A stretch of 64,000 nt of DNA from Eledone cirrhosa (taxonomy: Eukaryota), in contig OZ024742.1 in NCBI GenBank assembly GCA_964016885.1, positions 55,986,001 through 56,050,000 of the forward strand. The letters are read 5' to 3'. Below are positions 1,411 to 50,889 of the stretch, piece by piece. The position numbers were made by a program, and so were the translations under genes. The stretch's first letter is position 1, and the number at the start of each line of letters is the position of its first letter. Under the pieces are notes generated by a model. The model searched no databases. It saw only the letters and a list, made by a program, of their open reading frames with translations, and was not told the DNA's origin.

Positions 1411-1716
1411 CAAAAGAGACAGCGGGAGGTATATGAAAAGTAATTTACAAAATGGAAAAAATGAAACGATAATTCCTTTCCCACTCTTAGTACGGCTGTT
1501 ACTTAAATATAAGTATGTACACGTACATACATATATGTATACCGACGTACAGTAGTATGTATATATATATATACATACATGCACACATATATATATGCAC
1601 GTATGGATTCACCGAACATTTATTATAATGCTCGGTGTGTTTGTAAACAAACATCCCGTATTAAGCCGTAGTGTCTAGCAACCACCGTTGCTCGTTTGTT
1701 CAACACTGACAAAGGA

Positions 1717-1759
1717 ACGCTGTACTAGTTTCAAGCTTGTTAGCTATCGTCAGCAACGT
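1717..1759 (-). ncRNA. Minimal type I hammerhead ribozyme, array unit 1
   Basis: Minus strand: ACGTTG-CTGACGA-T AGCT AACA AGCT T-GAAAC-TA-GTA-CAGCGT; helix I 6 bp, helix II 4 bp, palindromic helix III ACTAGT, GUA triplet. Confidence 0.8.
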
Positions 1760-2140
1760 ATACCTTCCTGCCAGATTGTTGAACGTATATACTTACCTTA
1801 TGCATATTAACGGCTGAGTAGCCCAATTTGCATATCGAGTGGGTTAATCGGCCGGGTGCACCGAAAACGATAAACGGAAAAAATGAAACGATATTTCATT
1901 TCTCACTCTTAGTACGGCTGTTACTTAAATATAAGTATGTACACGTACATACATATATGTATACCGACGTACAGTAGTATGTATATATATATATATACAT
2001 ACATGCACACATATATATATGCACGTATGGATTCACCGAACATTTATTATAATGCTCGGTGTGTTTGTAAACAAACATCCCGTATTAAGCCGTAGTGTCT
2101 AGCAACCACCGTTGCTCGTTTGTTCAACACTGACAAAGGA

Positions 2141-2183
2141 ACGATGTACTAGTTTCAAGCTTGTTAGCTATCGTCAGCAACGT
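2141..2183 (-). ncRNA. Minimal type I hammerhead ribozyme, unit 2
   Basis: Same core as unit 1; helix I 3' strand CATCGT (one U-U mismatch). Confidence 0.75.
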
Positions 2184-2562
2184 ATACCTTCCTGCCAGAT
2201 TGTTGAACGTATATACTTACCTTATGCATATTAACGGCTGAGTAGTCCAATTTGCATATCGAGTGGGTTAATCGGCTGGGTGCACCGAAAACGATAAACG
2301 GAAAAAATGAAACGATATTTCATTTCCCACTCTTAGTACGGCTGTTACTTAGATATAATTATGTACACGTACATACATATATGTATACCGACGTACAGTA
2401 GTATGTATATATATATATACATACATGCACACATATATATATGCACGTATGGATTCACCGAACATTTATTATAATGATCGGTGTGTTTGTAAACAAACAT
2501 CCCGTATTAAGCCGTAGTGTCTAGCAACCACCGTTGCTCGTTTGTTCAACACTGACAAAGGA

Positions 2563-2605
2563 ACGCTGTACTAGTTTCAAGCTTGTTAGCTATCGTCAGC
2601 AACGT
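2563..2605 (-). ncRNA. Minimal type I hammerhead ribozyme, unit 3
   Basis: Identical to the unit 1 motif. Confidence 0.8.
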
Positions 2606-2984
2606 ATACCTTCCTGCCAGATTGTTGAACGTATATACTTACCTTATGCATATTAACGGCTGAGTAGCCCAATTTGCATATCGAGTGGGTTAATCGGCCG
2701 GGTGCACCGAAAACGATAAACGGAAAAAATGAAACGATATTTCATTTCTCACTCTTAGTACGGCTGTTACTTAAATATAAGTATGTACACGTACATACAT
2801 ATATGTATACCGACGTACAGTAGTATGTATATATATATATACATACATGCACACATATATATATGCACGTATGGATTCACCGAACATTTATTATAATGCT
2901 CGGTGTGTTTGTAAACAAACATCCCGTATTAAGCCGTAGTGTCTAGCAACCACCGTTGCTCGTTTGTTCAACACTGACAAAGGA

Positions 2985-3027
2985 ACGATGTACTAGTTTC
3001 AAGCTTGTTAGCTATCGTCAGCAACGT
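2985..3027 (-). ncRNA. Minimal type I hammerhead ribozyme, unit 4
   Basis: Identical to the unit 2 motif. Confidence 0.75.
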
Positions 3028-3406
3028 ATACCTTCCTGCCAGATTGTTGAACGTATATACTTACCTTATGCATATTAACGGCTGAGTAGTCCAATTTGCA
3101 TATCGAGTGGGTTAATCGGCTGGGTGCACCGAAAACGATAAACGGAAAAAATGAAACGATATTTCATTTCCCACTCTTAGTACGGCTGTTACTTAGATAT
3201 AATTATGTACACGTACATACATATATGTATACCGACGTACAGTAGTATGTATATATATATATACATACATGCACACATATATATATGCACGTATGGATTC
3301 ACCGAACATTTATTATAATGCTCGGTGTGTTTGTAAACAAACATCCCGTATTAAGCCGTAGTGTCTAGCAACCACCGTTGCTCGTTTGTTCAACACTGAC
3401 AAAGGA

Positions 3407-3449
3407 ACGATGTACTAGTTTCAAGCTTGTTAGCTATCGTCAGCAACGT
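3407..3449 (-). ncRNA. Minimal type I hammerhead ribozyme, unit 5
   Basis: Identical to the unit 2 motif. Confidence 0.75.
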
Positions 3450-3812
3450 ATACCTTCCTGCCAGATTGTTGAACGTATATACTTACCTTATGCATATTAA
3501 CGGCTGAGTAGTCCAATTTGCATATCGAGTGGGTTAATCGGCTGGGTGCACCGAAAACGATAAACGGAAAAAATGAAACGATATTTCATTTCCCACTCTT
3601 AGTACGGCTGTTACTTAGATATAATTATGTACACGTACATACATATATGTATACCGACGTACAGTAGTATGTATATATATATATACATACATGCACGTAT
3701 GGATTCACCGAACATTTATTATAATGATCGGTGTGTTTGTAAACAAACATCCCGTATTAAGCCGTAGTGTCTAGCAACCACCGTTGCTCGTTTGTTCAAC
3801 ACTGACAAAGGA

Positions 3813-3855
3813 ACGCTGTACTAGTTTCAAGCTTGTTAGCTATCGTCAGCAACGT
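3813..3855 (-). ncRNA. Minimal type I hammerhead ribozyme, unit 6
   Basis: Identical to the unit 1 motif. Confidence 0.8.
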
Positions 3856-4344
3856 ATACCTTCCTGCCAGATTGTTGAACGTATATACTTACCTTATGCA
3901 TATTAACGGCTGAGTAGTCCAATTTGCATATCGAGTGGGTTAATCGGCCGGGTGCACCGAAAACGATAAACGGAAAAAATGAAACGATATTTCATTTCCC
4001 ACTCTTAGTACGGCTGTTACCTAGATATAATTATGTACACGTACATACATATATGTATACCGACGTACAGTAGTATGTATATATATATATACATACATGC
4101 ACACATATATATATGCACGTATGGATTCACCGAACATTTATTATAATGCTCGGTGTGTTTGTAAACAAACATCCCGTATTAAGCCGTAGTGTCTAGCAAC
4201 CACCGTTGCTCGTTTGTTCAACACTGACAAAATATATATCCATAACTTTTGTACCCATATACGCTTCATCAGACATGCATAGATACACATTCAAAGGCAA
4301 TATATATTTATACATTTCATTGATGTCTGTATGTATAAATGTAT

Positions 4345-4405
<61 letters not shown>

Positions 4406-4699
4406 TATATATATATATTCATATATATATATATATATAAACATAAAAATTGAAACGAAATTTCATTCCCCACTCTTAGTACGGCTGTTACTTAAATATA
4501 AGCATGTACACGTGCATACACATATGTATACAGACGTACAGTAGTATGTATATATATACATACATGCACATATATATATGTACGTATGGATTCACCGTAT
4601 ATTTATTATAATGCTCGGTGTGTTTGTAAACAAACATCCCGTATTAAGCCGTAGTGTCCAGCAACCATCGTTGCTCGTTTGTTCAACACTGACAAAGGA

Positions 4700-4742
4700 A
4701 CGCTGTAATAGTTTCAAGCTTATTAGCTATCGTCAGCAACGT
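4700..4742 (-). ncRNA. Hammerhead motif of unit 8, helix III mutated
   Basis: GAAAC-TA-TTA instead of GAAAC-TA-GTA; the C-G pair and the palindrome are lost. Confidence 0.55.
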
Positions 4743-4837
4743 ATACTTTCCTGCCAGATTGTTGAACGTATATACTTACCTTATGCATATTAACGGCTGA
4801 GTAGCCCAATTTGCATATCGATATTGCATATCGATAG

Positions 4838-17290: not shown

Positions 17291-17721
17291 CAATACATAT
17301 TCGGTGCTGTTATAGGTTCGGTCATATGATCTGCTATTCTGTTCTTTACTTGCTAATTTATTTCCTGTATTCCACTTCACTTATTTGAAAACATAATCGT
17401 CACATAGAAATAAGAACAACGAACACAATTTGAAACATACACACATGCGCGCACACATATATACATCTATATGTGTTTATATATACATACATATATATAT
17501 TGTTATATTTTAGGAGGGTCATGTTGCCAATAAGAAACACACGGACCAGTTGCTTTCACTTCAATTTATTATAATAAATTTATAAATTTAGGAATTTATA
17601 AATTCCCGGTTGGTTGGTTGGTTCCACAACCAGATGGTTGTTTATATATTGTCAAAGTGCTTTCGTCAATAAATTCCTAAATTTATAAATTTATTATAAT
17701 AAATTGAAGTGAAAGAAACTG

Positions 17722-20700: not shown

Positions 20701-21430
20701 TATGCAGTTCTCTGGTTACAATCAGAGAGATAAAATCAGAGTGTATAGAGGAGCCAGAACCAAATGGGACAAAATGGTAAATAATGACACAAATGGGACC
20801 TGCCCCTTGTATAGGAGCAAATTTTGGAATAGAATAGAAAGAACTAGGAATAAAGCTAATCGAATAAACTCATGGTATGATAGCAATAAATACCAGAGTG
20901 TAATGTTCATCGATACAACACCTAGAGGTGAATTAGCTTACAAATTTAGAAGGGCCCTAAATAAACATAAACTCAATATTAAGATAGTAGAAAGACCAGG
21001 TACCTCCATAAAAAACACTTATTAGCAAGACATACCCTTTTCAAAGACATCCCTGTATAGATGAGAAATGTATAATCTGTAAATTAAGCCCCCATATTAA
21101 CTGTAAAACTAGAAATGTAGTATATATCATAAGATGTACTGAAGGACAATGTAGAGATAAAAATATAGTGTACATAGGTGAGACAGCTCGTAGTATAGGG
21201 GAACGGATAAATGAACACTGGCGAGACCTTCAAGATAGTAAAGAATCATCTGTACTCTAGCAACATGCTAAAATAGAACATAAGGGTAAATTAGAGAACA
21301 TAGAAATAAAAATAGAATCTACACACAGAAAAGACGCAATGTTTAGACAAATCATAGAGGCAATAAACATAGATGAATTACAACCAAAATTAAATAGAAA
21401 ACATGAGTGGAACAGCAACATCACAACTTA
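17722..21430 (+). pseudogene. PLE polyprotein (N-terminal domain, RT, GIY-YIG), disrupted
   Basis: FPTDKSG, LYGLRKDHK, RPVCGA, SMDVVSLYPSI, YSRYVDD, LPVLD, CKTRNVVYIIRC...YIGETARSIGERINEH; several stops and frameshifts. Confidence 0.92.
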
Positions 21431-21639
21431 CAATTAAGGACAAAATGAAAATACGCACGCACATAGAACAAACAACCAACCAGTAACATGTAAATAAACA
21501 AATAAATAAACGAATAGAAACACACACAGACACCCGGATGTAACACATGCGCAAACTCAGCACACAACACACACATAAAAACAAGATGGCGTAAGATAGG
21601 ACAAAGGAGAGGCACAAAAAACAAAGAAAAGAATGCCCA

Positions 21640-21682
21640 GTCACTGAAGAGGTCACAGAATGTGTGACGAAAGAACTTTGAC
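21640..21682 (+). ncRNA. Minimal hammerhead in PLE 3' terminal repeat
   Basis: GTCA-CTGAAGA-G GTCAC AGAATGT GTGAC-GAAAG-AA-CTT-TGAC; the inverted 5' copy has GAAAG-CA-CTT-TGAC (17651-17664). Confidence 0.7.
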
Positions 21683-21821
21683 AATATATAAACAACCATC
21701 TGGTACGGAAATAACCAACCAACCGGAAATTTATAAATTCCCAAATTTATAAATTAATTATAATAAATTGAAGTGAAAATACGTTTTCAGATAAAGAATC
21801 TTGCTAAGCAAATTCAGAAAC

Positions 21822-27000: not shown

Positions 27001-27513
27001 ACGTCTGAGCAGGTTGGTGAGACTCTTGCACCCTCCATCCCTATCCACTAATCCCACACAATCCCAGCGTTCATCTAAGATCCCGTTCCAGTCGCCCACT
27101 AACACTAAAGAGCGGGACGTTCCAAGAAAGGTCTCCAGACGCCAGAAGAAATCAGGCCGCCCTGCTCCTGTCGGGGCATAGACGGCCACTAACCTGAAAG
27201 CTTGCCCGTCTCCGCTGGTCACGTCCAGCATCACCAACTTACTTTCTGGGTCCAGGAAGATGGCCCGTATGGCAAGATCCAAACCTCTCCGAAAAAGCAC
27301 AGCAACTCCACCCCCCGATCCCGGACGGCTGGGAGATGCGTACACATCGTAGCCGCCGAAGATCGGTGCGAAAGCCTGTGCTTCGGAGATTCTGGTCTCG
27401 CTGATGGCCACTACATCTATGTTTAGTGACCTGAGGTCGTTGAGCAGGTGGCCCTGCTTCCATGACGACCCCAAGCCACGCGCATTTATGCTGCCTATTC
27501 TGAGTGAGGTCAT
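24094..27513 (-). pseudogene. Tx1 ORF2 (APE endonuclease, RT, CCHC), a few frameshifts
   Basis: SINARGL, ISETR, GDWN, YLDR, TDH, KSPGLDG, FRPITLLN, LDQSKAFDRV, VRQG, AYADD, CPRC..ETVLHALVQC. Confidence 0.95.
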
Positions 27514-27547
27514 GTTGAAAAGGTGTGGAAAAGATGGGAAAGACCAC

Positions 27548-29535
27548 TTACCTTACTTCTCGTAGGGGAAGGACGGTTTTTTCATCCTTTTCACTGCTTG
27601 TGGCCTCCTCAGGAAGGATGTCCTTATAAATCCTCCTGGAGAGTGCTTGTCGGAAGTCTCCGATGTCTTTGGGGAATTTTTGTTTTAGTGTCATGTACGT
27701 TTTCTGTGTGATGCGAGTGATTTGTATGTGTGGAGGTGGTGTGAATTTTGGGGTTGTTGTGTAGTATTTTTCTGTGATGCTGGTGTTGTGTTGGATGTAG
27801 TGTAATAATTGATTGTTGTTCAAATTTAATGCTGTGTAGTGTGTATCGTTTTGGTTGTTTTGTTTTGTTTGCGTTTGTTGTGGGTTTGTTTCTGTTTCTC
27901 ATGTTGGTGACTTTTGTGGTGTAAGTTATGGTGGTGTTGGGGTTAATGATGGTGATGGTGTTGGTGTTTGGGTTGATGGGGTTGGTGATGCTGGTGTGGA
28001 TGGTGGCATATCTGTCCTAACTTTTTTGTTTCTTAATTTATTTGTTTCCCTCTGTATTTTGCTTTTGGAGGGGAAAGGAAGAGAATTTTTTTTTTTTTGG
28101 TTTCTTTTTTTTTTCCGGATATCGTTTCCCACTCCTCGTCGTCACAATCCCTCTCCAGTTGTGATAGGCCGGGGAGTGGAAAATCCTCCACAGCCGTTAG
28201 TTTTGGTTGTGGCGTGGTGGATGGTGTAGGCGCTGGTGCTAGTTCTGAAGCGTTGGGTGGTGGTGGTGTTGGTTTTGCTGGTGGTGGTGGTGGTGTTGGT
28301 TTTGCTACTGTTGCTGGGGTTGTTGCTGTTATAGTTGCTTCTGTTGTTGCTGCTACAGTTGTTGCTGCCATCTCTGCTTGGTGGTGTTGATGGTTGTGTC
28401 ACTGGCGTGGGTAGGAGAGGTGGCCTCAACCTTTAAGCCTGAGGGCAGAAAGCCCTTAGGTGGGTTCCTTCACCACAAACGACACACCTAAGTCTTCTTC
28501 CCTCGACAATTACCGTGAGGTGGCTGCCGTCAGTGAGGTCTATTACCTCTGGGATCTCCTTAATGCTTTTTTGGTCCGCTTGGATCAGGAGCTCCATCCC
28601 AGATCCAGACCAGTTCTCCTGCTTTTCTTTTGCTATTGCTATTATTTTCGTGTTGGCTTCGATGCCGGCGAGGACGGCCGCTATTAGCCAGGGAATTTCG
28701 ATGGCCGGTGGAACGTGGGTCACCCTGATGTTTACGAGTCTCTGGCCACAATAGCTTGGGACGAGTGTGAAGTCGTCACTTCTTAATGGGGCCATGGAGT
28801 GTTCTCTGGCCTCCTCTGGTGTTTCAAAGAACATGTCCACAGTTCCATACTTTTGCCCACGTCTGATGTGGGTTTTTCTTGCCCACACATGTCCCAAAGC
28901 TTTTGGGATTTGGGACTCGGATGCCCGTTCCACTCGGCGCGATTTTACATTTATTGTTCTATACGACACGGTGCATAGGCGCCGATGCTCCATTTTATTA
29001 GGTGGGGGGTGAGGCTGACCCTGTACCCATCTTTCTTTACCATTTGTTTGGCATTTTCTAAATCCTCCTGAGTTACCGTAAATGCTTCGAACTGTTTTGC
29101 TACTCTGGCGAAACTGAGGGTCGGTTTTATAATGTCATTGTTGTTGTTGTTGCTATCGTTATTTGTGTTAATATTAATTTTAGATTCAGTTGTGGTGGTG
29201 GTGACGTCAGTCGTCTTTGGTGGGGAAGAGTCCATTTTGCTTGATTTCATTTCGACATCACGAGTTAATTTATTTTTTTCTTCTTTTGTTTCTGTTGTCG
29301 CGGTGGTGGTGGGGTGGTGGTTGTCGCGGTCGTGGTGGTGGTGGAGGCTTTAACACCTGCAGTCATTGGTAATGGCGGGAAATGAATGTCTGCCTGAGAC
29401 AAATTTAAAATATTGCTACTGCTTATATTTTTTTGTGTTGGCAAACGTAGTAACATTTACAATGGTGGTGTCGGTGTGAGGTGTTAATTTGTGAGGAAGG
29501 CTTTCAGCTGCTTGTTGCAGAGGTGAATTAGCCAT
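27548..29535 (-). pseudogene. Tx1 ORF1 region (gag-like, one CCHC knuckle), frameshifted
   Basis: Core 28433-28993 ends CVVCGEGTHLRAFC (Cx2Cx4Hx4C); Thr/Asn/Pro-rich flanks; conserved terminal block 27548-27823. Confidence 0.8.
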
Positions 29536-30016
29536 TTTTTTTCAAAGAAATTTTTTGATAATAATAAAAGTTAAAATTTTGGGCACAAGGCCCCAATCTT
29601 TTTGGGTGTCCTTTTCGGAAAACAATGTATGTGCGCTTATAAACAGTTAACAATAAAATTTTCCATAAATGACAATTTTTAACAAACGGAAATAACAAAC
29701 CTTTGCGGAGCTCACGATGATACGATTTACTACGTAGGTCGCCAATAATAATAATGATAAAAATAATAATGTTTTCTTTATTAACCACAAGGGTTTACAT
29801 AAAGTAGACATTAAGGACAGTACAGGACAATACAGAACGGTACAAATGGGCATTTCTGCGTGTAAAAAAAACAGGGTATGTAATAAAAAATAACAATGAA
29901 AAATTCCCCAATAGGGGGGAGACTTCCGAGGGACATTTGTGGAGAAAGCCCATTAAAAGGCCAAAGTGACGCTGGCCACCAGGGCAAGTGCCCTATCCCA
30001 GATTTCCACCTTTAAT

Positions 30017-33000
30017 TTACAGACACATACTGAGAGTAGGCCCATTCACTCGGGCCTTACTTGCTTCTCTCACCCATCTTTCAACAAAATGCTGGGAAGA
30101 GAGCACTTCCCTCTCTACCCTGATTTTCCTTTTCAAATGAAATTTGAAAAAGTTAATCAGGGCATCACCGAAGAGGTAAGTGCTCGTCTTCAGCCCTTTC
30201 AGACGTGTCCACCATACTATCTCTTTCGCCATGGCCACCAGACAGATAAAAACTTCCTTCCCGGCTAAACGAAGAGGGCGGGGCAATCCTCACGATGGAC
30301 CCAGCTGATAGCTGGATCCGTCCTACACGTGACAGCAGGTGTTCGACATAAACCCACAAGTTAGCAATGCTCGGACACTGAACGAGTGCGTGCAGGATGG
30401 TTTCGTCGCTCTGCGCGCATCTCGGACATGTCCGTGGAGTTTATCCCGAACTGGAAAAGCTCCTTGGTAGCACTGCCAGGCCAGGGATTTCTGGAAGTTG
30501 TCCATAGGCCTCGGCCCGAAAGTCCTTCCGAAGAGATTGGCTAGTTGACTTTCGTCGACGCCTAGAGTTTCTCCAAGTACGTCTTCGCTCTTCCACGCCA
30601 CTAATCCTCTATAGAACGCCAAGGTGGAGTTTCCAACGATCAGATTGCCAAATTGGTCGAGGGCTGTGAGCGCCTGAGGACATTTCAGTCTCCAAGCGCT
30701 CCCTCTCGGTCTTCGCTTGACCAGGACTGCAGCTCCGTCAAGGAGAACAGCTGGGGAAAGACGTGTCTAGCAAACGGCGACAACACCTGATCACCGTCGA
30801 GGAAGAGGTGGAGATGTCGTAGCTTGAGCGCGTGTCTGCGCATCATCAGCCGAGGCATGCCCAGCCCTCCACGTAGCGGGTGTTGACAGCAGATGGACCG
30901 CACGACCATCGGAGCGCGTCCCTTCCACAAAATGCGAAAGAGCAAACGCTCCAGCGCAGTCAGGCGGGGCTTAGAAGAAGGTACGACGGTCAGGCAGTAG
31001 TAGATGACGGACGCGATGTACGCGTTAGCCACCTCCGCTGCAGGCCCACTGACTTTTAAAAGTTGATCATTGCTCCTGTCACCGCTTCGTATTCTCTTAG
31101 TGTAGTGCCGATCGCCTCGATGTGTTTGGCGTTCGACACCACTACGGTGACATCGTCCGCATATACTGACACGAATCTTCCGCATCCTAGTTCGCGCGGA
31201 ACCCCCCTCAACGTCTCCAGTTTGTGCAGTAATGGCTTGAGAGTCAATACGTACAATGGGACGAGATAGGACATCCTTGGCGGACCAAGCGCATGATGTT
31301 GAACGGTTCCGAAAGGTTACCGTTCACTCTCACCACAGAGCAGATGTCGCTGTGCATGGCAGCGATCCAGCCTCTGAAGACGGGCCCAAAGCCAGCCGCC
31401 CTCAGGACTGCTGCTAGGTAACGATGGTCGACCCTATCGAAAGCTTTCGATTGACCTAAATTGATCAAGGACCCACCCGTGCCAGGTTCCCTAGCTACCC
31501 TCTCTACGATGTATCGCATGAGGTGGAGGTTGTCGTGGATGGATCTGTCGGGAATGGCGCATGTCTGCGCCTCTCCCACCAGACCACCAACGACAAGCGC
31601 CAACCTCTTTGCTAGCACCTTGGCCAAAATCTTGAACTCTGTGTTTAGCAGAGTTATGGGCCTGAAATTATCTATGTTATCCCCCTTGTTCGGATCCTTT
31701 CTCAGCAGCGTCACAGCTCCTCGCCTCACAGAGCTGGGAATTCTCCCGTTCTGTTGCCAGTTGCAGTAGACGTCCGCCAAGAGGACGACGAACAAGTCTG
31801 GTATCTGTACGTAAAGTTCATAGGTCAGACCATCCAAACCAGGCGATTTACCCCTTGTGCAGCCAGTCATTGCCTCCCGTACTTCAGCGGCTGTTATCGG
31901 CTTTTCGCAACACTCCGCCTCAGTGGCCGAGAGCCGCGGTTGTCCGTCGAGGTAGACACTAAAGTCCATCCCTCGATCCGGCTCGCCGCTGCCCCCGAAC
32001 AGCTGTGCGAAGTGTTGCTGAAAAGCTGCACACATTTGCCCGGGATCGAGTAGCATGCGCCTGTCGTGGTCCACCAAAGACCGGATCCTGGCTTTGTTGC
32101 CACGACGCGCCTCCGCCACTCGGGCCCATTGAACGGCTTTCGTCCCCTCGTGTCTGAGAGCACGCACTCTAGCTCTGACAACGCAGCCTTCGTGCTTTGC
32201 ACTGAAGAATTGGTCAAGGGCCAATTTCGCCGCAAGTACGTCGGTAGCGATGCCTTTGCTAAGCGCCTTGTCTAATTTTCTAACTAATTCTCCCTCTGCT
32301 CTATTTTTCTCTTTTGCTAAAGCCTTACTAAACCTAATGGACTCTATTCTAATTGCTCTTTTCAGAGCAAACCACAACTTGTTGTTGATGATGGCCCCCG
32401 TCAACGCCCGCTTAACTAGTTCGCTAATCCGGTCTTTGTAGGCCTTGCGCGCTGGTAAGGACGCGTTTAGCTTCCAGTAGCCGGGTCCTCGTCTATGAAG
32501 CCTATCTAAGTCAAGCACACAGATCACGAATTTGTGGTCCGAGTAGCTGACTATCTTGAATTGTGGACAGCCTATGCTAGACCTATCTATTTCCCTACAA
32601 AATACTCTATCTAGATATGATCTGGATGACCTTATGCGATTTGTCCAAGTCCACATTGGCACATTCGGGAAATCCAATCGGTACCTCTCAGACAGTTCAA
32701 AACGCCTGAGCAGGTTGGTGAGACTCTTGCCCGCTCCTCCCCTATCCGCTAATCCCACACAGTCCCAGCGTGCATCTAAGATCCCGTTCCAGTCGCCCAC
32801 TAACATTAAAGAGCGGGACGTTCCAAGAAAGGTCTCCAGACGCCAGAAGAAATCAGGCCGCCCTGCTCCTGTCGGGGCATAGACGGCCACTAGCCTGACA
32901 GCTTGCCCGTCTCCGCTGGTCACGTCCAGCACCACCAACTTACTTTCTGGGTCCAGGAAGATGGCCCGTATGGCAAGATCCAAACCTCTCCAAAAAAGCA

Positions 33001-33213
33001 CAGCAACTCCTCCCCCGATCCCGGACGGCTGGAAGATACGTACACATCGTAGCCGCCGAAGATCGGTGCGAAAGCCCGTGCTTCGGAGATTCTGGTCTCG
33101 CTGATGGCCACTACATCTATGTTTAGTGATCTGAGATCGTTGAACAGGTGGCTCTGCTTCCATGACGACCCCAAGCCACGCGCATTTATGCTGCCTATTC
33201 TGAGTGAGGTCAT
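30017..33213 (-). pseudogene. Tx1 ORF2 copy B, disrupted
   Basis: ORFs 32920-33213, 31244-33247, 31056-31274 (VYADD), 30685-31185 and 30017-30286. Confidence 0.93.
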
Positions 33214-33247
33214 GTTGAAATGGAGTGGGAAAGATGGGAAAGACCAC

Positions 33248-35416
33248 TTACCTTACTTCTCGTAGAGGAAGGACCGTTTCTCCATCCTTATCACTGCTTG
33301 TGGCCTCCTCAGGAAGGATGTCCTTATACATTCTCCCGGAGAGTGCTTGTCGGAAGTCTCCGATGTCTTTGGGGAATTTTTGTTTTAGTGTTTTGTACGT
33401 TTTCTGTGTGATGCGAGTGATTTGTATGTGTGGAGGGGTGTGAAATTTTGGGTTGTTGTGTAGTCTTTTTCTGTGATGCTGGTGTTGTGTTGGATGTAGT
33501 GTAATAATTGATTGTTGTTCAAATTTAATTGTTTCTACTTTTGGCACAAGGCCAGCAATTATTCCAGTGCATTACTGGTACTTTATTTTATCGACCCCGT
33601 AAGGATGAAAGGCAAAGTTAACCTCGGCGGGATTTGAACTCATAACATAAAGGGAGGTAACTCTATGCTTCAAAGCATGGCGTCCGACCCTTACCGATAC
33701 TGCCAATCCCAAATTTAATGCTGTAGTGTGTATCGTTTTGGTTGTTTTGTTTTGTTTGTGTTTGTTGTGGGTTTGTTTCTGTTTCGCATATTGGTGACCT
33801 TTGTGGTGTAGGTGATGGTGGTGTTGGGGTTAATGATGGTGATGGTGTTGGTGTGTGGGTGATGGGGTTGGTGATGCTGGTGTGGATGGAGGCATATCTG
33901 TCCTAACTTTTTTGTTTGATAGTTTATTTGTTTCCCTGTATTTTGTTTTTGGAGGGGGAAGAAAGAGAATTATTTTCTTTTTTGGTTTCTTTTTTTCCTG
34001 ATACCGTTTCCCACTCCTCGTCGTCACAATCTGTCTCCAGTTGTGATAGGCCGGGGAGTGGAAAATCCTCCACAGACGTTAGATTTGGTTGTGGCGTGGT
34101 GGATGGTGTAGGCGTTGGTGCTAGTTCTGGCGCGTTGGGTGGTGGTGGTGTTGGTTTTGCTACTGTTGCTGGGGTTGTTGCTGTTATAGTTGCTTCTGTT
34201 GTTGCTGCTACAGTTGTTGCTGCCATCTCTGCTTGCTGCTGGTGATGTTGATGTTTGAGTCACCGGGGTGGGTAGGAAAGGTGGCCTCAACCTTTTAGCC
34301 TGAGGGCAGAAAGCCCTTAGGTGGGTTCCTTCACCACAAACGACACACCTATGCCTTCTGCCCTCGACAATTACGGTGAGGTGGCTGCCGTCAGTGAGGT
34401 GTATTACCTCTGGGATCTCCTCAATGCTTTTTTGGTCCGCTTGGATCAGGAGCTCCATCCCAGATCCAGACCAGTTCTCCTGCTTTTCTTTCGCTATTTC
34501 GATTATCTTGGTGTTGGCTTCGATGCCGGCGAGGATGGCCGCTATTAGCCAGGGAATTTCGATGGCCGGTGGAACGTGGGTGACCCTGATCTTTACGAGT
34601 CTCTGGCCACAATAGCTTGGGACAAGTGTGAAGTCGTCACTTCTTAATGGGGCCATGGAGTGTTCTCTAGCCTCCTCTGGTGTTTCAAAGAACACGTCCA
34701 CGGTTCCATACTTCGGTCCACGTCTGATGTGTGTTTTTTTGGCCCACACATGTCCCAAAGCTTTTGGGATTTGGGACTCGGATGCCCGTTCCAGTGGGCG
34801 CGATTTTATATTAAGTGTTCGATAAGACACGGTGCATAGGCGCCGATGGTCCATTTTATTAGGTGTGTGTTTGGGGGGTGGGGGATCTGAGGCTGACCCT
34901 GTACCCATCTTTCTTTACTATTTTTTTGGCTTCTTCTAATTCCTCCTGAGTTACCTGAAATGCTTCGCACTGTTTTGCTACTCTGGCAAAACTCAGGGTG
35001 GTTTTCTTAATGTCATCGTTGTTGTTGTTGTTATCGTTATTTTTGTTATTATTAATTTTAGTTTCAGTTGTGGTGGTGATGGCGTCAGTGGTGTTCGGTG
35101 TTCATTTTGTTTGAATTCATTTCGATATCACGAGTTAATTTATTTTTTTCTTTTGTTTCTGTTGTCGCGGTGGTGGTGGGGGGATGCTTTTCGCGGTGGT
35201 GGTGGGGTTGGGGGTTGTCGCGGTGGTGGTGGTGGTTGTGGCGGCTTTAACACCTGCAGTCATTGGTAATGGCGGGAAATGAATGTCTGCCTGAGACAAA
35301 TTTAAAATATTGCTACTGCTTATATTTTTATTGTTGGCAAACGTAGTAATATTTACAATGGTCGTGTCGGTGTGATGTGTTAGTTTGTGAGAAAGGAGTG
35401 ACTCTGAGTCAGCCAT
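33248..35416 (-). pseudogene. Tx1 ORF1 region copy B, disrupted
   Basis: MADSES start at 35416; core 34024-34908 with CVVCGEGTHLRAFC. Confidence 0.8.
33530..33709 (-). mobile_element. tRNA-derived SINE inserted in Tx1 copy B, 10-bp TSD
   Basis: CAAATTTAAT at 33520-33529 and 33710-33719; single empty site in copy A at 27821-27830. Confidence 0.93.
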
Positions 35417-35693: not shown

Positions 35694-35889
35694 TGGGAGC
35701 ATGATGCTGAACATGATAGTCAGGCAGTGTAGATTGCGACAGTACAAAAGTAGATTAGTGAACAAGCACACCAACAAACTGATTTGAGTATCACAGTTGA
35801 AACTCTTAAAAGGCAGGCAAAAAACTAACCAACTGGAAATCACCAGGCCTAGATGGTGTGCAGGGGTATTGGATTAAAAATCTAACATC

Positions 35890-36745
35890 TTAAATATAAG
35901 TATGTATACGTACATACATATATGTATACAGACGTACAGTAGTATGTATATACATACATACATGCAAACATATATATATATGTACGTATGGGTTAACCGA
36001 ACATTTATTATAATGCTCGGTTTGTTTGTAAACAAACAACCCGAATTATTTGCCGTATAGTGTTCGGCAACCATCGTTGCCATTTTGTTCAACACTGACA
36101 AAGGAATGATGAACTAGTTTCTAGCTTATTAGCTGTCATCAGCACCGTATACCTTCCTGTCAGTTGATTGAACGTTTGAAAGTATATACTTTCCTTATGC
36201 ATATTAAAGGTTGAACAGCCTAATTTGCATATCGAGTGAGTTAGTCGGCTGGGCGTACCGAAAATGATAAATGGAAAAAATGAAATTTCATTTCTCACTC
36301 TTGGTGCGGCTGATACTTAAATATAAGTATGTATACGTACATACATATATGTATACAGACGTACAGTAGTATGTATATACATACATACATGCACACATAT
36401 ATGTACGTATGGGTTAACCGAATATTTATTATAATGCTCGGTGATGACAGCTAATAAGCTAGAAACTAGTTCATCGTTCCTTTGTCAGTGTTGAACAAAA
36501 TGACAACGATGGTTGCCGAACACTGTACGGCAAATAATTCAGGTTGTTTGTTTAGAAACAGACCGAGCATTTTAATAATTGTTCGGTTAACCTATACGTA
36601 CTTACATATATATATATGTGTGCATGTATGTATGTATATACATACTACTGTACGTCTGTATACATATATTTATGTACTTATACATACTTATTATTAAGTA
36701 TCAGCTGTACTAAGAGTGAGAAATGAAATTTCATTTTTTCCAATA
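35890..36745. mobile_element. Insertion of the 422-bp-family element (1.3 units plus an inverted partial unit), 7-bp TSD
   Basis: TAACATC at 35883-35889 and 36746-36752; CTTAAATATAAG recurs ~427 bp apart; 36442-36742 is inverted. Confidence 0.88.
36106..36148 (-). ncRNA. Minimal type I hammerhead, diverged relative of the array HHR
   Basis: ACGGTG-CTGATGA-C AGCT AATA AGCT A-GAAAC-TA-GTT-CATCAT. Confidence 0.72.
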
Positions 36746-38242
36746 TAACATCCCTCCACCCGAAATTGACAACCATGTTCAATGACTGCTTGATGTCGGG
36801 TGAGGTACCAGAGTGGTTGACAAAAGGTACCACAGTTCTGGTAATGAAAGACCGAATCAAGGGTAATGATGTTACCAACTATAGACCTATCACATGTCTG
36901 TCCGTAATGTGGAAACTGTTAACAAGCATTGTGTCTGAGGAAATCTACCATCACCTCCACATAAACAATTTGTTACCAGACGAACAGAAAGGATGCCGAA
37001 AGAAGTCCCGTGGTACAAAAGACCAGTTACTTATTGATAAGATGGTAATGAGGAATTGCAAGAGGAGACACACTGGTCTTGCCATGGGATGGATAGATTA
37101 AAAAAAGGCATTCGATATGGTACCTCATTCTTAGATAACCAAAAGCCTAGAGATCTTCAAGGTGGCAGATAACATCAGACAGTTGCGAGCAAAAGTATGA
37201 AGTCCTGGGAAACAGAGTTAACATCAGCTGGAGAATCCTTGGGAGGCGTGAAGATCAAGAGAGATGTCTTGCGGGGAAATAGTTTGTCCCCTCTGCTGTT
37301 TGTCCTTGCCCTGATACCCCTGGCCATTATATTGCGAAAAGTGAGAGCAGGATACAATTTCGGAAAAGGAGAGCTTACCATCAACATCCTTTCATGGACG
37401 ATCTTAAACTCTTTGGGAAGAGTGAGAAGGAATTGGATGTACTTGTTGCCACTCTCCGTATTTTCAGCAATGATATATGTATGTAATTTGGTATTAATAA
37501 GTGTGGAGTCCTATTGATGAAGAGGGGTTAAATTGAGCAGAAGCAACGGAATCCAGGTACCAACAGGTGAGATGATAAAGGAAATTGACACTGAAGAAGG
37601 ATACAAGTATTTGGGTGTTCTGGAGGCAGATGACATCAAGAACAAAAAATGAAGGAATTGATAAGCTCTGAGTACATTAGGAGAGTAAGGAGCATATTAA
37701 AATAACATCTAAATAGTAGGAATGTCATAAGTGCAGTGAATTCCCGAGCTGTGTCTGTTATTAGGTAGAGTGCGGGAATTCTTAAATGGAATGTAGCTGA
37801 ATAAAAAGAAATGGATAGGAAGACTAGGAAGTTATTGACTATCTACAACATGAACCGCAAGAGGAGTGATGTCAATTGACTCTACTTAAAGAGATCTGAT
37901 GGTGGAAGAGGTCTTATCAGCTTAGAGGACTGTGTTCAGATGGAGAAAAACAACTTGCACAAATACGTGACTGACAGTAGGGAGCCAATGCTCAAATCTG
38001 TACTGACGGAGAAGACAATAGAGCAGAGGATGTCCAAGGAGGAAATAACAACAAGGATGAAGAGCAACCTTCATGAAAAATCCCTCCATATTACCTTCTT
38101 TAAGAAAACTGAATTTAGAGATCCACAGACATGGAACTGGTTAAAAAGAGGAGACCTTAAAAAGGCTACAGAAGGAATGCTAATGGCTGCGCAAGAGCAA
38201 GCCCTCAGAACGAAGTGGGTGAAACACCATATTTAACAGCTT

Positions 38243-41200
38243 TAACAGCTCATTGTCTTCGACGCCCAGGGTCTCCCCGGTAACGCCGTCGCTCTTTCCC
38301 TACACTAGCCCTCTATAGAACGCCGAGGTGGATGTTCAGCCGTTACTAGTGCCCAGCTGGTAGACGGCGATGAGTTGTTGGTGACATTCCAGCTTCCAAG
38401 CGCTATCCCTCGGTCTTTTCCTGATCCAGGACTGCAGCTCCGTCAAGGAGACGTGCTGGGGAAAAGCGCGTCTGGCAAACGGCGACCACACCTGTTCACC
38501 GTCAAGGAAGCACCAGAGATGTCGCAGCCTCAGCGCATGTTTGCGCATCATCAGCCACGGCATACCTAGTCCTCCACGCAACGGGTGTTGAAAGCAAATA
38601 GATCGTCTGAGCATGGGAGCACGTCCCTTCCACAAAAAGCGGAAGAGAAGGCGCTCCAATTTGGTCAGAGTTGGACGGACGCTATGTACGCATTCGACAC
38701 CTCCACCCGACCTTTCAGAGACAGCCTCCTCTCGGCACTTTTCTGGGTGAGAGAGGCCACCCTGCTCGTCACCTCGCTCCCGATTTTCTCCATCTGGAGG
38801 TCTGAACCGAAGCAGGCCCCGAGTGATTCAACCGGTCCTTCCGTCCAGCGGCCCATGACGCTGTCGGACGGCATGGACTCGCCTCTACAGGTGCCGAGTT
38901 GCAAACCCACCGACTTTTCCTGCTTTATCTTTGCTCCTGTCATCGCTTCGTAATCCTTGAGAGCGGTGCAGAGCATCTGGACGTGTTTGGTGCTCGACAC
39001 CTACACAGTGATGTAGTCGGCGTAAGCTGACACAGATCTCCCACATCCCTGTTCGCGGGGGACCCCCCTCATCGTCTCCAATTTGTGCAGTAACGGCTCG
39101 AGGGCTAGTACGTACAAGAGGGACGAGGGGGGGGGGGGGGGGGGGGGCAACCCTGGCGAACAGAGCACATGCTGCAGAAAAGCTGCGACAGGTGACGATC
39201 CACCCTCACAATCGAGAAGATGACGCTGTGCATCGCAGCGATCTAGCCCCTTAAAACTGTCCCGAAGCCGGCCGCCTCGAGGACCGCAGCCAGGTACCGA
39301 TGGTCGCCCTATGAAATGCTTTAGATTGATCCAAGTTTATGAGGGCCCCACACGTGCCAGTTTCTTTAAGCACCCTCTCTATGATGTATCGCATGTGATG
39401 GAGGCTGTCGTGGATGGATCTGTCCGGAATGGCGCATGTCTGCGCTTCTCCCACCAGATTACCGACGGCAAGCGTCAATCTCTTTGCTAACACCTTGGCC
39501 AAAATCTTAAACTCTGCGTTTAGCAGAGTTATGGACCTGAAGTTGTCTATAACGTCCCCCTTGTTCGAGTCTTTTCTCAGCAGCCCACCGTCCCCCGGAT
39601 CACAAAACTGGGAATGCTCCCGTTCTGCTAACAGTTGCAGTAGACCTCTGCCAAGATATCGCCGAACAAGTCTGGCATATAGGCATAAATCCCGTAGGGC
39701 AGACCATCCAAAGCTGGCGATTTACACCTCGTGCAGTAAGACATCGATTCCCGTATTTCACCTGCTGTTGTCGGCTTTGCGCAGCACTGCGCTGCAGTCG
39801 TAGAGACCCACGGCAGTCCGAAGAGGTATGCACCGAAGTCGATACTCCGACCCGGCCCGCCGCCACTCCGGAACAATTGAGCAAATTGCTGTTAAAAAGC
39901 CGCACACATCTGCTCGGGTTCGAGCAACATGCGCCCGTTTTGATCAAGCAAAGACCGAATTGTGGTTTTGTTGCCACGTCGCGCTTCCACCACCCGGGCC
40001 CATTGAACGGCTTTCGTCCCCTCGTGTCTTACAGCACGCACTCTAGCTCTGACAACGCAGCCTTCATGCCTTGCGTTGCGTGGAAGAATTGGTCAAGTGC
40101 TAATCTCGCCGCAAGCACGTCAGTTGCGATGCCTGTCCTAAAAGCTAGATTTCTAACTAAATCTCCGTCTACTCTATGTTCCTCTCTCACTACTCTTTTG
40201 CTAAGCCTTATCGATTCTACTATAATAGCCCTTTTCAGGGCAAACCACCACCTGTTGTTGACGATCGCACCCGTCAACGCACGCTTAACTAATTCGCTAA
40301 TCCGCTCTCTGCAAGCTTTGCGTGCCGGGAACGACGCGTTCAGCTGCCAGTAGCCAGGCCCTTGCCTATGTAGTCTATCTAAGTCAACTTCACAGATCAC
40401 AAATTTGTGATCTGTGTAATCGACTACTTTAATTTGTGGACAACCTACACTAGCCTTATCTGTTTCCCCACAGAATACCCTATCTAAATACAATCTGGAT
40501 GTCTCGATGCGATATTTCCATGTCCACATTGGCACATTCGGATAATCCAGTCTATACCTGTCAGAGAGTTCAAAACATCTGAGCAGGTTGTTGAGGCTTT
40601 TAAACCCTCCTGCCCTGTCTGCTAGCCCCACATAATCCCAGCGTGCATCTAAAATACCGTTCCAGTCGCCCACTAACACTGCCCTTCTTGGGGCGTGGGC
40701 GGCTACTAGCCTGAAAGCACTGCCTTCGCTGCCGGTCACATCCAGCACCACCAACTTACCTTCTGGGTCCAGGAAGATGCCCCGTATGGTGAGATCGAAG
40801 TCTCTCCGAAAAAGCAAGGCACCCCCCCGATCCTAGACGGCCGGGAGATGCATATACATCGTAGCCCCCGAAGATCGGTGCAAAGGTTCGTGCTTCGAGA
40901 TTCTGGTCTCGCTGATGGCTACCACATCTATGTTTAGTGACCTGAGGTCGTTGAGCAGGTGAGCCCAGGCCACGTACATTTATACTGCCTATTCTAAGTA
41001 CGGCCATGTTGGATGAGAAACTGTTTAAGAGAGAAAGAATCACTTACCTTGATTGTGTGGTGAATGGACAGTAGAACCGTCCCTTTTGCTGGTCATAGGT
41101 GTTTCCAAGAGGATGTCGGTGTATATTCTCTTGGTAACCGACCCTCTGAAGTCTCCAACTGTGTTGGGGAATTTTTCTTTTAAAAGTTTACAATGTTCTA

Positions 41201-43188
41201 TTTTGATTTCAATCATGTTTATGTTTTTCGGGAGAGTTCTTGGTGTTGGTGGGGTGTAGTAATTTTTTTCTGTGATGTCTGTGTGCTGCTTTATATGTTG
41301 CAAGGGTTCTTTATTTGCCATGTTTATGGCTGTGTACCTTTAGGGGTGAGGGGGTATTTTGTTGCTGTTTTCTTCTTGTTGCTGTTGGGTGTGTGTGTTT
41401 TGTTGTGTTTGCGATGTTGGTGTTTTTGTTGATGCTGGTGGTGGTGTGGTTGTTGTTGGTGGTGATGCTTATGGTGGTGGTGTTGCTGCAAATCTCCTTT
41501 CAGCATTTACCCCTCTTTGTTTGTCTTCGCTTTTGGAGGGTGATACTAAGGGGTTTTTCCTCTTTTGTTTTTTGTGGCAGACCGTTTGCCACTTCCCTCC
41601 CACCTCATACTCAATGTCGGATTCCGTGGCGTCTGCGAGGCGTATGAGCTCCACTACTGTTGGTGGTGGTGGAGCCTGCTCCGACGATTTTGTTGCTGGT
41701 GTAGCTACTGCGACTGCCACTGTTTTAGTTGTCCGTGGCCTTGGTATGGGTGCCACGGACGTTGCCCTCCTACTCACCATGGAAGGGTCATCTGCCTCTG
41801 TTGCCTGCCCTGCTCTTGGTAGCAGCGGATCAGGCGTCGGAAGGAGGAGGGCCCACTTCTTGGCTGTCTTCTGTGACCATTCTGCGCACAGAGATATCAC
41901 TTTGGGCGCCTTCCTTCCTCGCTTATACGGAGTTGGAGTCCTTCTGCCAGGTCTATGATATCTGGGATGGACTCGATGCTCTCCTAGTCAGTCTGTATTA
42001 GCATTTGCATGCCTATTCCTGCCAAGTTCTCTCTTCCCATTCTCTGTATTTGCAGTATGGTGGTATTCTGCTCGAATCCAGCCAGTACAGACGCGGCCAG
42101 CCAAGGTATGGACACGTCGGGCGGGACCTGGGTCACTTTGACCCTCACAATTACTGCCCACAGTAAGAGGGCACACACACTATCTTCTCACTCTTTAGGG
42201 TTTCCAAAGAGTGATACTTCGCCTCTTGGTGGGTTGCGAAAAGTACGTCTACTGTGGCGTACTTTTTGCCTCGGGTGATGTGAGTTTTGCGCGGCCAGAC
42301 GCACCCCAAGGCCGTTTGGATTTGAGCCTCCGTGGCTCTCTCCACCCGATGTGACATTTTGCTTACGGTGAGTTAAGTCACGGTGCGCAGCTGCTGGTCT
42401 TTGTAGAAATCGGGTGGAGTTTTTAGGGAAATTCTATTTTCATTCCTTGTCACTATGGCTCTTGCGACTGCCATCTCCTCCTTCGTGACTAGTACTGTCT
42501 CTATATTTCGGGTCACACCTGCGAAAGAAGTGGTCCCTTTTTCAGCGGCACCATTATTGATGCTGGTACTGCTGCTACTGGTCTTGTTGGTGCTGTTGTT
42601 GTTGCTACTGGTACAAACGGTGTTGTTGTTGTTGCTGTTATCACTGTTGTAGTTGGTTGTATTTTTGGTGCTACCGTTGTTGTTGTTTCCGGTTCAATTT
42701 GTATTGTTGCTGTTGGTGTTGTCGTTGTTTATTTTCTTGTTAGTGATGTTAATATCGTTGTTGTATTTGTTGTCATTTTTTTTTCGTTGTCTGTATTTTG
42801 GTTGTCGCTGTTGTTGTAGTTGGTGTGGTAATTTTTTTAAAATTAGTGTTCTCAGTGTTGTTGTCATTGTTCACGTTGATTGTGGTGGTGTTTGTTGTAT
42901 GAATTTCACTAACCCTCCTCTCAACTTTTACGCCGTTGTCACACGACGGCAGACATATTTCTCTCGTGGCTCAGCCATGATTTTTTATTTTTTTTTATTT
43001 TCAAAAGTAAAATGTTCAAATATTGTTCAAATATTTGGGCCAAAAGGCCCACATATTATACATTCGCCTTCACAGGGCAAAGTCCAAGGGCTTATATCCC
43101 TTACACAACAAGAAAATATTAACAAATAATTATAACAGGTAAATAAAGCGATTTATTGGGAACGAGCAAAAAGACGTCCAATCAGACC
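38243..43188 (-). mobile_element. L1/Tx1-clade copy C (diverged subfamily), 3' end missing
   Basis: ORF1 homologue (VERATEAQI..KTHITRGKKYATVDV); ORF2 from 41007 (MAVLRIGSINVRGL, GDWN, TDH, LDQSKAF); 5' end followed on the plus strand by CC-AATAAT. Confidence 0.92.
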
Positions 43189-44424: not shown

Positions 44425-45006
44425 TATATATATCCTCAGGTCATTACGAAGGTCCGACTTCCACACCGATCTCAAACTGTGGCACGCCGCAGTTAGTCCT
44501 CCGAGGAACTGGAAACATATGGTTCCAGTTCATCGGAGGACTAACAACACACCTAGGAGCTGGACATATCGATGAATTTACAGTGGAACACATTTCAACA
44601 ACATGTTTACCTGTTTTTTTCTACATTTATTCGTACTGCCCGATGAGGTCACAGCCAATAATATATATAGCACAAATATATATATATAGCAGAGAATTTA
44701 TAATAAACGAAGCCAAATTTAACATGTTTGACTTACTTATTTTACATTACTCCGGAGTAAACAAACCAGCCTGCGTACTTCGTCGAATGCTCCAATCTGC
44801 ATACTGGGGTGTCGGCAAGCAACCAACACATACTATTTGTTTACCCCTTTCACCTTTTTATTTTTATATATATACATACATGCACACATATATATATGGA
44901 CGTATCGGTTTTCCGAACATTTATTATAATGCTCGGTTTATATATATTTAAGAATTAAACAAGTTTCAATGAATACATCAAAGAATGAGTTTTACACACA
45001 TACATG

Positions 45007-46433: not shown

Positions 46434-46579
46434 ATTAGAATACTGGAGCGTGTTTGAGTCAAACACCCCCTTCGTATTATAGAAATGACAGTAAAAGGTA
46501 TAGCTCAATGCAGTTAAACAGAGCCAAAAAATTAAGAGAGTAAAACAAAGAATCCTTTAATACATCAAAAGTTTTTATT

Positions 46580-46619
46580 AGCCGACAATGTTTCGTCCTA
46601 TTAAGGACTCATCAGAGGT
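46580..46619 (-). ncRNA. Minimal hammerhead followed by AATAAA
   Basis: CT-CTGATGA-GTCC TTAATA GGAC-GAAAC-ATT-GTC-GG; canonical core and helix II, short helix I. Confidence 0.72.
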
Positions 46620-48539
46620 AATATCGGCAGAAACAAGCCAGAAACTCTGAAGAATATGGAGTGTACATACACTAATGTCTTACAAAAATATATGATAATA
46701 AAAATGAAAATAAAGATAAAAATAATAAAAATATATAATAAGAATAACTAAGGATGTAGATAACATTAAGAACCATATTACAAATATAGTCCAAAGCAAC
46801 CAACCTAAATCTAAACAAATTTGGTTATATAGAGCAGGAATTATATATAACACAATATAATACATTATAATAATAATATACTTTTACCAACATTAAAATT
46901 CCAAATTAAAAATCAAAAGGTACAATATATACATGTATATATGTGCGCACACACACACACACACACACATATAACAACACACACATCTATATTCGACTAC
47001 ACAAAAATTAAGCCCTATTAGAAGTTTGAATATTAAAAATAAGCATGATAAGAGTGAAAATAATACTAATACATCTACCCAATATACATGAGGCAATAAT
47101 GTGATATAATTACAAGAAACACATATAACAAATAATAAACAACAAAATTATATAATTCAATATAATATAATGAAATAGATAATCCCCGGTTAATTTACAG
47201 AAACAATATAGATGTCACAATAAAATACAATGATAAAACGTTAACAGTGTATTAACATGTACCATAAACAATATATACAAATTGATTCATACTGGGTTAC
47301 AGAATAAATGAGGAAATATAAATTATATAATACTAAAAAAAAACTATAATGGTACAGGGAAAAATTATGATGTTACAGAAAAAAATATGATGTTACAGAA
47401 AAAAATATTCAGACATCTAACATGATATGTAAAGTCTAAATATCATAATGTTACATATAAAGAACAGTAAGTAATAAGGATCAATATTACAATATTACAA
47501 AAATCCAGACATCTTACATGATATATAAAGTTTAAATATCATAATGTTACATATAATGAACAGTAAGTAATAAGGATCAATATTACATACAATATAATAT
47601 AATATATTATAAAATTGGCATAAAATATATAAATACTTATAATTACAAGGTTAGTAGACAGACATATGTGGATGAGTGAGCGAAGCCAGACAGTGAATAG
47701 TAAATAGAATATAGAATAAAACAAATAAATACAATCAACCGGAAATTTCAAAACAAAAGCAAATATACACACACTTAGGCCTCGCGTGCATTTAAGAAAT
47801 TAGGTAAACACTAAGGAAAGCAATCATTTTAATTGACTCCAAACCCTATTTGATAAATTAATATTAAAAATATCGAACCCGTCCAATAAGATAGTATAAA
47901 ATTAGCTGTAGTTTAAGTCATTAAAGTATATAAACTTTAATGTATCGTTACAAATGTTTACAAAAAGGAATGGAAATTATACTATCATATACGCAACGAT
48001 ATCTAAAAAACTGACTTAAGTAGAATTAAGGTAGGCTAATGGGGACAGAATTGACGAAATATATGGAGGGTGCGAAGTGGCATAAAATATAGTCGAAATA
48101 CTATAATAAATAATAGAACGGAGCATAAAAGAGGGGGGGGGGTTAAATATAATCATATTCAATCTGGAGGGGTTGACAATAAGTTTATGTGTGCATGGGG
48201 GGAGGGGGGTGGGGTTGTCGATAGATAAATCAGAATAGACTTAGAAATAAAAATAGAATTAAAAATAAAATTAAAGTTAAAATTAAAGTTAATAATAATA
48301 AAAAAATAAAGATAATAATAGAATAACGTAAGTGGCGTAAAGTATGTAATCTTATGTATACTGACAAGGTGTAATAGTGAAGACATAGATGTGGTACAGT
48401 AGCCAAATGTTTATGAGAGCTAGAATGAAGAGTCATCAAAAACCAATGATAACATTAATGTTGGCAAACAAAAGAACCCAAACAAAAAACTAAGTAATGG
48501 AATATATCTGCTAATGGGTACAATTTGTACTACTAGAAC

Positions 48540-50718: not shown

Positions 50719-50889
50719 ATTCTCAAACTTATGTGTGAATATGCAAATGAATATGTAAATAATTGAAAAACAACCGTTTATTTAAATGACACTGGAGAAA
50801 GAGAGAGAAAAAAATATAAGGAGATAAAGATAAAAAATATTACGAGAGAGATATAGAGAAGAAATAGACACGAGAAGATGAATATAACG

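Follow-up and report, generated by a model that had tools for sequence, protein, structure and literature searches.

How does a non-coding repeat, otherwise met as satellite-looking DNA, come to lie inside the reading frame of a retrotransposon, in two opposite orientations and between two copies of the target sequence, and which enzyme could have put it there? This question is raised by a locus of the Eledone cirrhosa assembly GCA_964016885.1, lying in a stretch of 64,000 nt that was analysed at its full length and is called here the window (contig OZ024742.1, positions 55,986,001-56,050,000 of the forward strand). An earlier note, made from the letters alone, had proposed that the unit of a tandem array present in the window is mobile through an RNA intermediate, in the manner of Penelope-like elements (PLEs). 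The features needed for the argument are the following, phases being counted from the predicted ribozyme cut and A and B designating two preferred 3' end sites described below.

1450..4231, minus strand: 6.6-unit array of the 422-bp sister subfamily; 3' end at site B, 5'-truncated; two-haplotype mosaic of units
4453..4821, minus strand: further partial copy of the retrozyme family
35694..35878, plus strand: host non-LTR retrotransposon, part 5' of the insert; its frame resumes at 36753 and is unbroken in paralogs
35879..35889, plus strand: left copy of the 11-bp target-site duplication, altered by a single A>C change; its final C is common to the element end
35890..36442, minus strand: arm 1, spanning about 1.3 units between its 3' end at A (phase 223) and its 5' end at phase ~91; one crossing of the cut site
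36103..36147, minus strand: type I hammerhead motif, with CUGAUGA core, helix II, GAAA, a 1-bp helix III and a palindromic CUAG loop
36182-36189, minus strand: TATA-like box upstream of the ribozyme
36223-36230, minus strand: octamer-like ATGCAAAT upstream of the ribozyme
36442, no strand: head-to-head inversion junction with a 1-nt overlap
36442..36741, plus strand: arm 2, spanning about 0.7 unit between its 5' end within the ribozyme core (phase 398) and its 3' end at B (phase 267)
36699..36741, plus strand: the "tail", i.e. the A-to-B stretch, at the right end of the insert only
36742..36752, plus strand: right target-site duplication, exactly the empty site of the paralogs; its initial A is common to the element end
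36753..38236, plus strand: host LINE, part 3' of the insert, a decayed RT region 3.7% from the paralog majority

The insertion of the repeat into the host LINE is real. The host, which we take from its motifs to be R4-like (the label also used in the earlier note), has Pfam RVT_1 as its sole profile match, and a sister copy, 84% identical, is located upstream of a PD..D-type motif. As the earlier note had read it, the host frame is split, ending at 35889 and resuming past the insert. Other host copies were searched with the right flank as query, and among the 19 best non-self copies (40 scored, from 1604 candidates) the target site is single in 19/19: the empty site that the earlier note had advised looking for is thus found in all of them, and none already carries the duplicated TAACATC that would have spoken against an insertion. 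All 19 paralogs read A at the position where the left copy reads C, so that the duplication is AAT(C/A)TAACATC, 11 bp with one mismatch, of which a 9-bp core is left once the letters common to the element ends are excluded; the 7-bp TAACATC first put forward has to be replaced by this length of 9-11 bp. The distance between the two copies, i.e. the insert, is 852 bp. Contigs from public runs bridge the site with 863 letters skipped (four runs from at most two samples, one of which is possibly the source of the assembly), and contigs across it show 11 letters fitting either side (two runs, one sample). As the host is 3.7-5.6% from the paralog majority and the arms are 4.7-6.4% from the family consensus, four shared alleles counted, the insertion likely occurred soon after the arrival of the host. 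The duplication at 35879-35889 and 36742-36752 is readable because the target is a unique sequence, which is the sole unusual trait of this target.

The inserted unit is 427 nt long and the insert, in which no ORF of at least 100 aa occurs, is non-coding. The predicted hammerhead lies on the minus strand of arm 1 and would cut between 36112 and 36111. Across subfamilies, consensus units measure 422-477 nt and are found in tandem and dispersed; an exact 30-mer motif has 856 matches in the genome and the pattern of the younger subfamily 11,216 exact matches, against 0 in the controls of both. LTR, PBS and PPT are absent from the unit (PBS and PPT judged by eye), and TSDs are 9-12 bp long. In a set of 12 hand-picked sequences across subfamilies, whose relatedness makes the result a support and not a probability, 97.1% of the cells of the hammerhead helices are paired, 6/12 pairs have changes on both sides, the covariation score is equalled in 0/500 shuffles, and the loop of helix III stays palindromic (CUAG, CAUG). 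Among the 150 of 186 Rfam matches listed for the window, the ribozyme of the family is absent, these matches being microsatellite-driven miRNA matches and one hammerhead of another element. Folding of the isolated motif gives no monomeric hammerhead fold (z near 0), which is expected of a dimer-type helix III, although it brings no support either. By its sequence traits the inserted repeat is a non-LTR retrozyme. Upstream of the ribozyme, at 36182..36230, the boxes that we presume to be octamer-like (ATGCAAAT) and TATA-like may form an internal promoter; the octamer-like motif is retained in a 75%-identical relative. This sister family (L222:4681-5219, L294-L313) also displays compensatory changes in all three ribozyme helices. 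In one other insert (L361-L364, C1:319893981-319896446), the loop has changed from CUAG to CAUG in 4/4 sampled ribozymes, on both arms and with the palindrome kept, and one arm additionally has its own private variant.

Both the class and the hypothesis that links it to PLEs are already published (PMC7229834; bioRxiv 10.64898/2026.07.22.740005; PMC7761336), as far as the accessible texts go. Non-LTR retrozymes of metazoans are described in PMC7229834 from coral, mussel and axolotl, with circles and cleavage demonstrated, and PLEs are put forward there as their mobilisers. The Eledone family shares with them non-coding units of a few hundred nt, a type I hammerhead, a tandem or dispersed arrangement and TSDs of more than 4 bp, and shares with HHR_Amex1 of axolotl a one-pair helix III with a palindromic tetraloop, of the dimer type. 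It differs in being described from DNA, with measurements of its insertion ends, tails and paired arms; the words "octopus", "cephalopod" and "inverted" have 0 occurrences in the accessible text of PMC7229834. The preprint 10.64898/2026.07.22.740005 treats retrozymes as non-autonomous PLE derivatives that use the PLE machinery, on the basis of co-occurrence and pLTR homology, mainly in vertebrates; its accessible text holds no analysis of insertion ends. In the Eledone family, an insertion signature is present and no pLTR homology was found in the PLE families sampled. No cephalopod retrozyme was found in the literature consulted, and no count of the end pairing reported below; preprint supplements, Repbase and subscription papers could hold either.

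The layout described in the earlier note, about 1.3 units followed by an inverted partial unit, is confirmed, the inverted part amounting to 0.7 unit; the family assignment changes, as the insert belongs to a 427-nt subfamily that is about 85% identical to the 422-bp array. At the junction, the overlap read against the insert's own first unit is one T, and the microhomology CGGTG suggested earlier would need an additional 3-nt deletion. The breakpoint does lie within the hammerhead core here, but a special role of the core is not supported: over 58 junctions, 11/116 inner ends fall within the ribozyme against 11.1 expected. Near-palindromic junctions, with inner ends at most 20 nt of phase apart, number 6/58 against 5.6 expected. 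These rates indicate a random breakpoint and do not favour fold-back. Overlaps of 1-6 nt are found in 30/58 junctions.

The outer ends were read in 84 ribozyme-anchored loci (90 fetched consecutively along contig C1, 6 overlaps removed), in 28 best matches (30 fetched, 2 duplicates removed) and in 52 young loci, elements reaching a locus edge being excluded in all samples. On the ribozyme-sense strand, 3' ends are fixed and 5' ends scattered. Site A covers phases 205-230 (mostly 218-223) and site B phases 255-276 (mostly 267-272), about 50 nt apart; the two windows represent about 11-12% of the unit length, yet 147/186 outer 3' ends of older-family arms and 80/100 of young ones fall there. Conversely, 5' ends are spread across all phases (n=211), and arm lengths range from tens of nt to about 3000 nt. 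The ends at A or B run into (TA)n in 118/147 cases. The earlier note had counted fixed termini with Helitron or TIR signatures against its own reading: the 3' termini are fixed indeed, no Helitron or TIR signature is seen, and fixed 3' sites do not refute the PLE reading, as internal initiation by PLEs predicts them (PMC11167929, in its accessible part).

Furthermore, the two ends of an insert follow a nearly strict pairing. Two outward 3' ends are present in 94 inserts. Classification was possible for 54, in which each end is at A or B, and one A is combined with one B in 51 of the 54 (27/29, 5/6, 19/19; binomial p 1.5e-12 against one half); the other 40 have at least one end outside A/B, some being cut by later insertions. 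Since single-arm inserts end 28 times at A and 22 times at B, an independent choice would predict about half A+B. These 50 single-arm inserts have no inverted end, and remnants of a second arm were not found as a rule at their 5' ends. Other inserts with a readable target (L072, L105, L068) are flanked by repeats of 11-12 bp, shared letters counted, and the 9-bp TSD core is found in L001, L072 and L105. Two inserts that contain two subfamilies (L003, L096) were considered as single events and rejected, being read as nested insertions.

Several of these traits are known from PLEs. According to the accessible text of PMC11167929, the Poseidon protein PAc nicks AT-rich DNA in vitro and extends both of its strands, two adjacent internal RT start sites 3' of the ribozyme delimit the tail, and a protein dimer is predicted. 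The retrozyme family has in common with it two start sites downstream of the ribozyme and AT-rich targets. However, PAc is autonomous and coding, and its two strands display no start-site difference in vitro, whereas the genomic pairs counted here are almost always A+B. As described in the available parts of PMC3846280 and PMC8557442, Penelope, Neptune and Naiad have head-to-head 5'-truncated copies, TSDs of 8-10 bp, a (TA)n bias and a tail of 30-40 bp, often at one end only, a description that is qualitative; the inverted copies are ascribed there to self-priming or endonuclease resolution. The retrozyme differs from these inverted pLTRs in its tail of about 45-60 nt and in being non-coding. 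The empty site, the TSD of 9-11 bp, the fixed 3' and scattered 5' ends, the (TA)n targets and the one-sided tail bear out the proposal of a PLE-type spread through RNA.

The reading that we favour, with a probability of roughly 0.8, is that the insert is a retrozyme RNA reverse-transcribed by a PLE enzyme, probably of the Neptune type, both nicked strands having primed on RNA of a single lineage. The AT-rich target DNA would be nicked on its two strands at positions staggered by about 9 bp; one target strand would be extended from B, its partner from A, a start lying some 50 nt farther upstream in the RNA; each cDNA would proceed toward the RNA 5' end, past the cut site; and the growing cDNA ends would be joined through short microhomology. 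A more elaborate picture, which we offer tentatively, is that a PLE dimer might hold a single RNA circle with its active sites at A and B, giving each nick its own start site, so that two polymerases would roll along the circle and their products would fuse head-to-head, while germline ligation could join retrozyme and PLE RNAs at the ends left by their ribozymes. If this picture is true, the PLE tail and the inverted pLTRs would in general record paired priming and not fold-back or resolution.

Other routes to such an insert have to be weighed against this one. Helentron derivatives may comprise hairpins, a microsatellite and tandem arrays, and the inverted arms of the family resemble TIRs, so that a DNA-level element (a MITE or an element of the Helitron/Helentron type) or a satellite spread by recombination might come to mind. 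Such an origin, to which we give next to no credence, is refuted by the variable 5' ends and the TSD: 5' ends lie all over the unit, the 50 single-arm inserts lack any inverted end, arm lengths vary over the range given above, the TSD itself refutes a Helitron, and the ribozyme helices covary. Twin priming, in the style of L1, by the protein of a LINE such as the R4-like host acting on a linear RNA, accounts for more. A TSD, outward 3' ends and short junction microhomology are typical of it and are all present here, and LINEs are abundant within the window. However, the outer end of the inverted arm should then adjoin the 5' end of the other arm and vary with it, whereas A and B are its fixed positions, and in the insert at 35890-36741 the two ends are 175 nt of phase apart. 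Moreover, poly(A) and 3' homology to the host LINE are not seen, and the ends agree with the behaviour of a resident PLE. Twin priming, largely refuted by the fixed second end, is thus very improbable.

A closer rival keeps the PLE but has it prime only once, the tail and inverted arm arising later through self-priming or fold-back and endonuclease resolution (PMC3846280, PMC8557442, as far as their available parts go). It also predicts a tail at one end only, and the private alleles common to both arms agree with it. We nevertheless consider it unlikely, as fold-back predicts palindromic junctions, which occur at the chance rate given above, and the longer arm may be either of the two, each of which may be more than a unit long. 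The last alternative also retains PLE-driven insertion: the template would be the uncleaved multimeric transcript of an array, the ribozyme would be dispensable and long arrays would grow later by DNA duplication. It is a possible explanation, although we lean away from it. In its favour, insertion in vitro occurs without need for ribozyme cleavage (PMC11167929, accessible part), the array of the window is a haplotype mosaic, some passes within an arm differ, and source arrays of 5-6 units are present. Private variants common to all units of young loci, the identical ribozyme-dead junctions of an insert that has no source array, and chimeras at the cut site, which imply cleaved RNA, stand against it, each of them being still compatible with duplication after insertion; these three observations are detailed below.

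Paired priming on one RNA lineage, which we prefer, receives support from the alleles of the arms. Both arms of the insert at 35890-36741 carry 61A, 73T and 117T, found in only 2/188, 7/192 and 4/224 segment readings of the family, respectively. Over 41 inserts, opposite arms have derived alleles in common at 0.8% of sites, compared with 0.25% for random pairs, and the arms of one young insert are identical over 264/264 nt. To judge from these alleles, both arms usually derive from one RNA lineage, although later gene conversion is another possible source of them.

The shape of the template is a separate matter. The arms cross the cut site in 128/170 A/B arms and exceed one unit in 80 (in a sample chosen for ribozyme content), so that a cleaved linear monomer is insufficient as template and the circular or multimeric template of the earlier note stands. 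Variants private to a locus are common to all its units in 7/12 young multi-unit loci. A very young head-to-head insert (L226, G000:C1:184445217-184448050) has a right arm of about 5.5 units of 465 nt, in which five junctions all lack the same 7 nt at the cut and the four full units are identical. This deletion is not found elsewhere in its subfamily, and no source array is present in the assembly. Its placement is ambiguous by one base either way and it recurs in another subfamily, once at C2:217046420 and once at C19:21467018, so that deletion of a palindrome at the DNA level is possible. Successive passes within an arm differ at polymorphic sites in 22/144 comparisons; together with the two-haplotype mosaic at 1450..4231, this indicates that the copying of a single circle does not by itself account for the longer arrays. 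On the whole, we hold a circular monomer to be a somewhat more probable template than an uncleaved multimer.

Which PLE could have acted as partner? A young PLE of the same genome, called Neptune-like from a motif given in the accessible part of PMC8557442, has intact frames of 1217 aa with a CxxC linker before the endonuclease. Its copies end at a short or long site of their own (A or B), into (TA)n, and its head-to-head pairs are A+B in 7/7 classifiable cases (read off a listing), an eighth having an intermediate end. No pLTR homology to the retrozyme unit was found in three PLE samples of 30 loci each, which are a small share of the PLEs of the genome, nor in the flanks of the 75%-identical relative, and no shared RNA structure is evident at A/B between retrozyme and Neptune elements. 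The sole link found between the retrozyme and a partner consists of two chimeras (L344, C1:64633310; L345, C7:90896449), in which a retrozyme 3' end is joined to Neptune-like family Y. Both sides of the joins are predicted cut sites, with no shared letters: the retrozyme part is the last 43-47 nt of the unit, up to its predicted cut, and the part from family Y starts at the hammerhead-like cut of that family. At one of the two loci, family Y is itself inserted head-to-head as a B+A pair. The retrozyme sequence begins at phase 381-385 in both, some 25-30 nt past the TATA-like box, a position that may mark a transcription start. As the two loci share variants, they may go back to a single event. 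Their structure suggests a ligation of cleaved RNAs, or a bridging of these by the enzyme of family Y. No further chimeras were found among 15 and 24 matches, and no reverse chimera (PLE ribozyme plus retrozyme) among 19 matches, each of which was a point variant or an inversion junction. The cut is not clearly enriched in breakpoints: it has 15, and two control positions, whose anchors are unequal, have 9 and 5. Neptune-like family Y is thus a tentative candidate for the mobilising partner.

So far, the re-entry of animal retrozymes into the genome is a hypothesis that draws on co-occurrence and on homology of pLTRs. As for the one-sided tail of PLEs and their inverted copies, the papers cited leave the origin open. 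What appears to be new here is evidence at the level of insertions for the mobilisation by PLEs of retrozymes, proposed earlier mainly from co-occurrence and homology. The family provides a large natural data set of a non-coding ribozyme repeat with a full PLE insertion footprint, in a genome that has both young intact Neptune-like ORFs and near-identical retrozyme copies. Where a tail had been described as frequent at one end, the nearly strict A+B pairing of this family provides a rule, testable by the existing in vitro PLE assay. Part of the satellite-looking DNA and of the (TA)n clutter in the Eledone cirrhosa genome would then be retrotransposed.

Other elements of the window and its surroundings deserve mention. 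A decayed Neptune-like PLE with an inverted terminal repeat lies at 17713-21790 (plus strand), and its young relative has the intact 1217-aa frames, with an asparagine-rich insert (L194-L223). Another PLE, at 46576-50781 (minus strand), has a GIY-YIG match and a hammerhead at 46578-46621, and in its relatives (L265-L293) frames are open over about 915 aa. A solo 3' piece of family Y is found between (TA)n runs at 8955-9140 (plus strand), with a hammerhead-like core that displays U3-A8 and GCAA instead of GAAA. Several decayed L1/Tx1-like LINE copies occupy 24094-34914 and 38336-42700, one with endonuclease and RT Pfam matches, and one such copy truncates the host LINE at 38236. One and the same retrozyme fragment (phase 259 to 98) occurs at the same point of an RTE-like LINE in two loci 283 kb apart (L059:1363-1629, L060:1691-1956), which could be due to an ancient duplication or to carriage by the LINE. 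A second hammerhead repeat of high copy number (window 44560-44900 and L142-L160) has head-to-head arms and two end types; in 13/13 listed pairs, a long arm is accompanied by a short inverted one, the query favouring long arms. The repeat is followed at 44865-44939 by a stretch that resembles the retrozyme hairpin. Finally, a further head-to-head multi-unit insert of the young retrozyme subfamily lies 10 kb upstream of the window (L163, 4208-6318).
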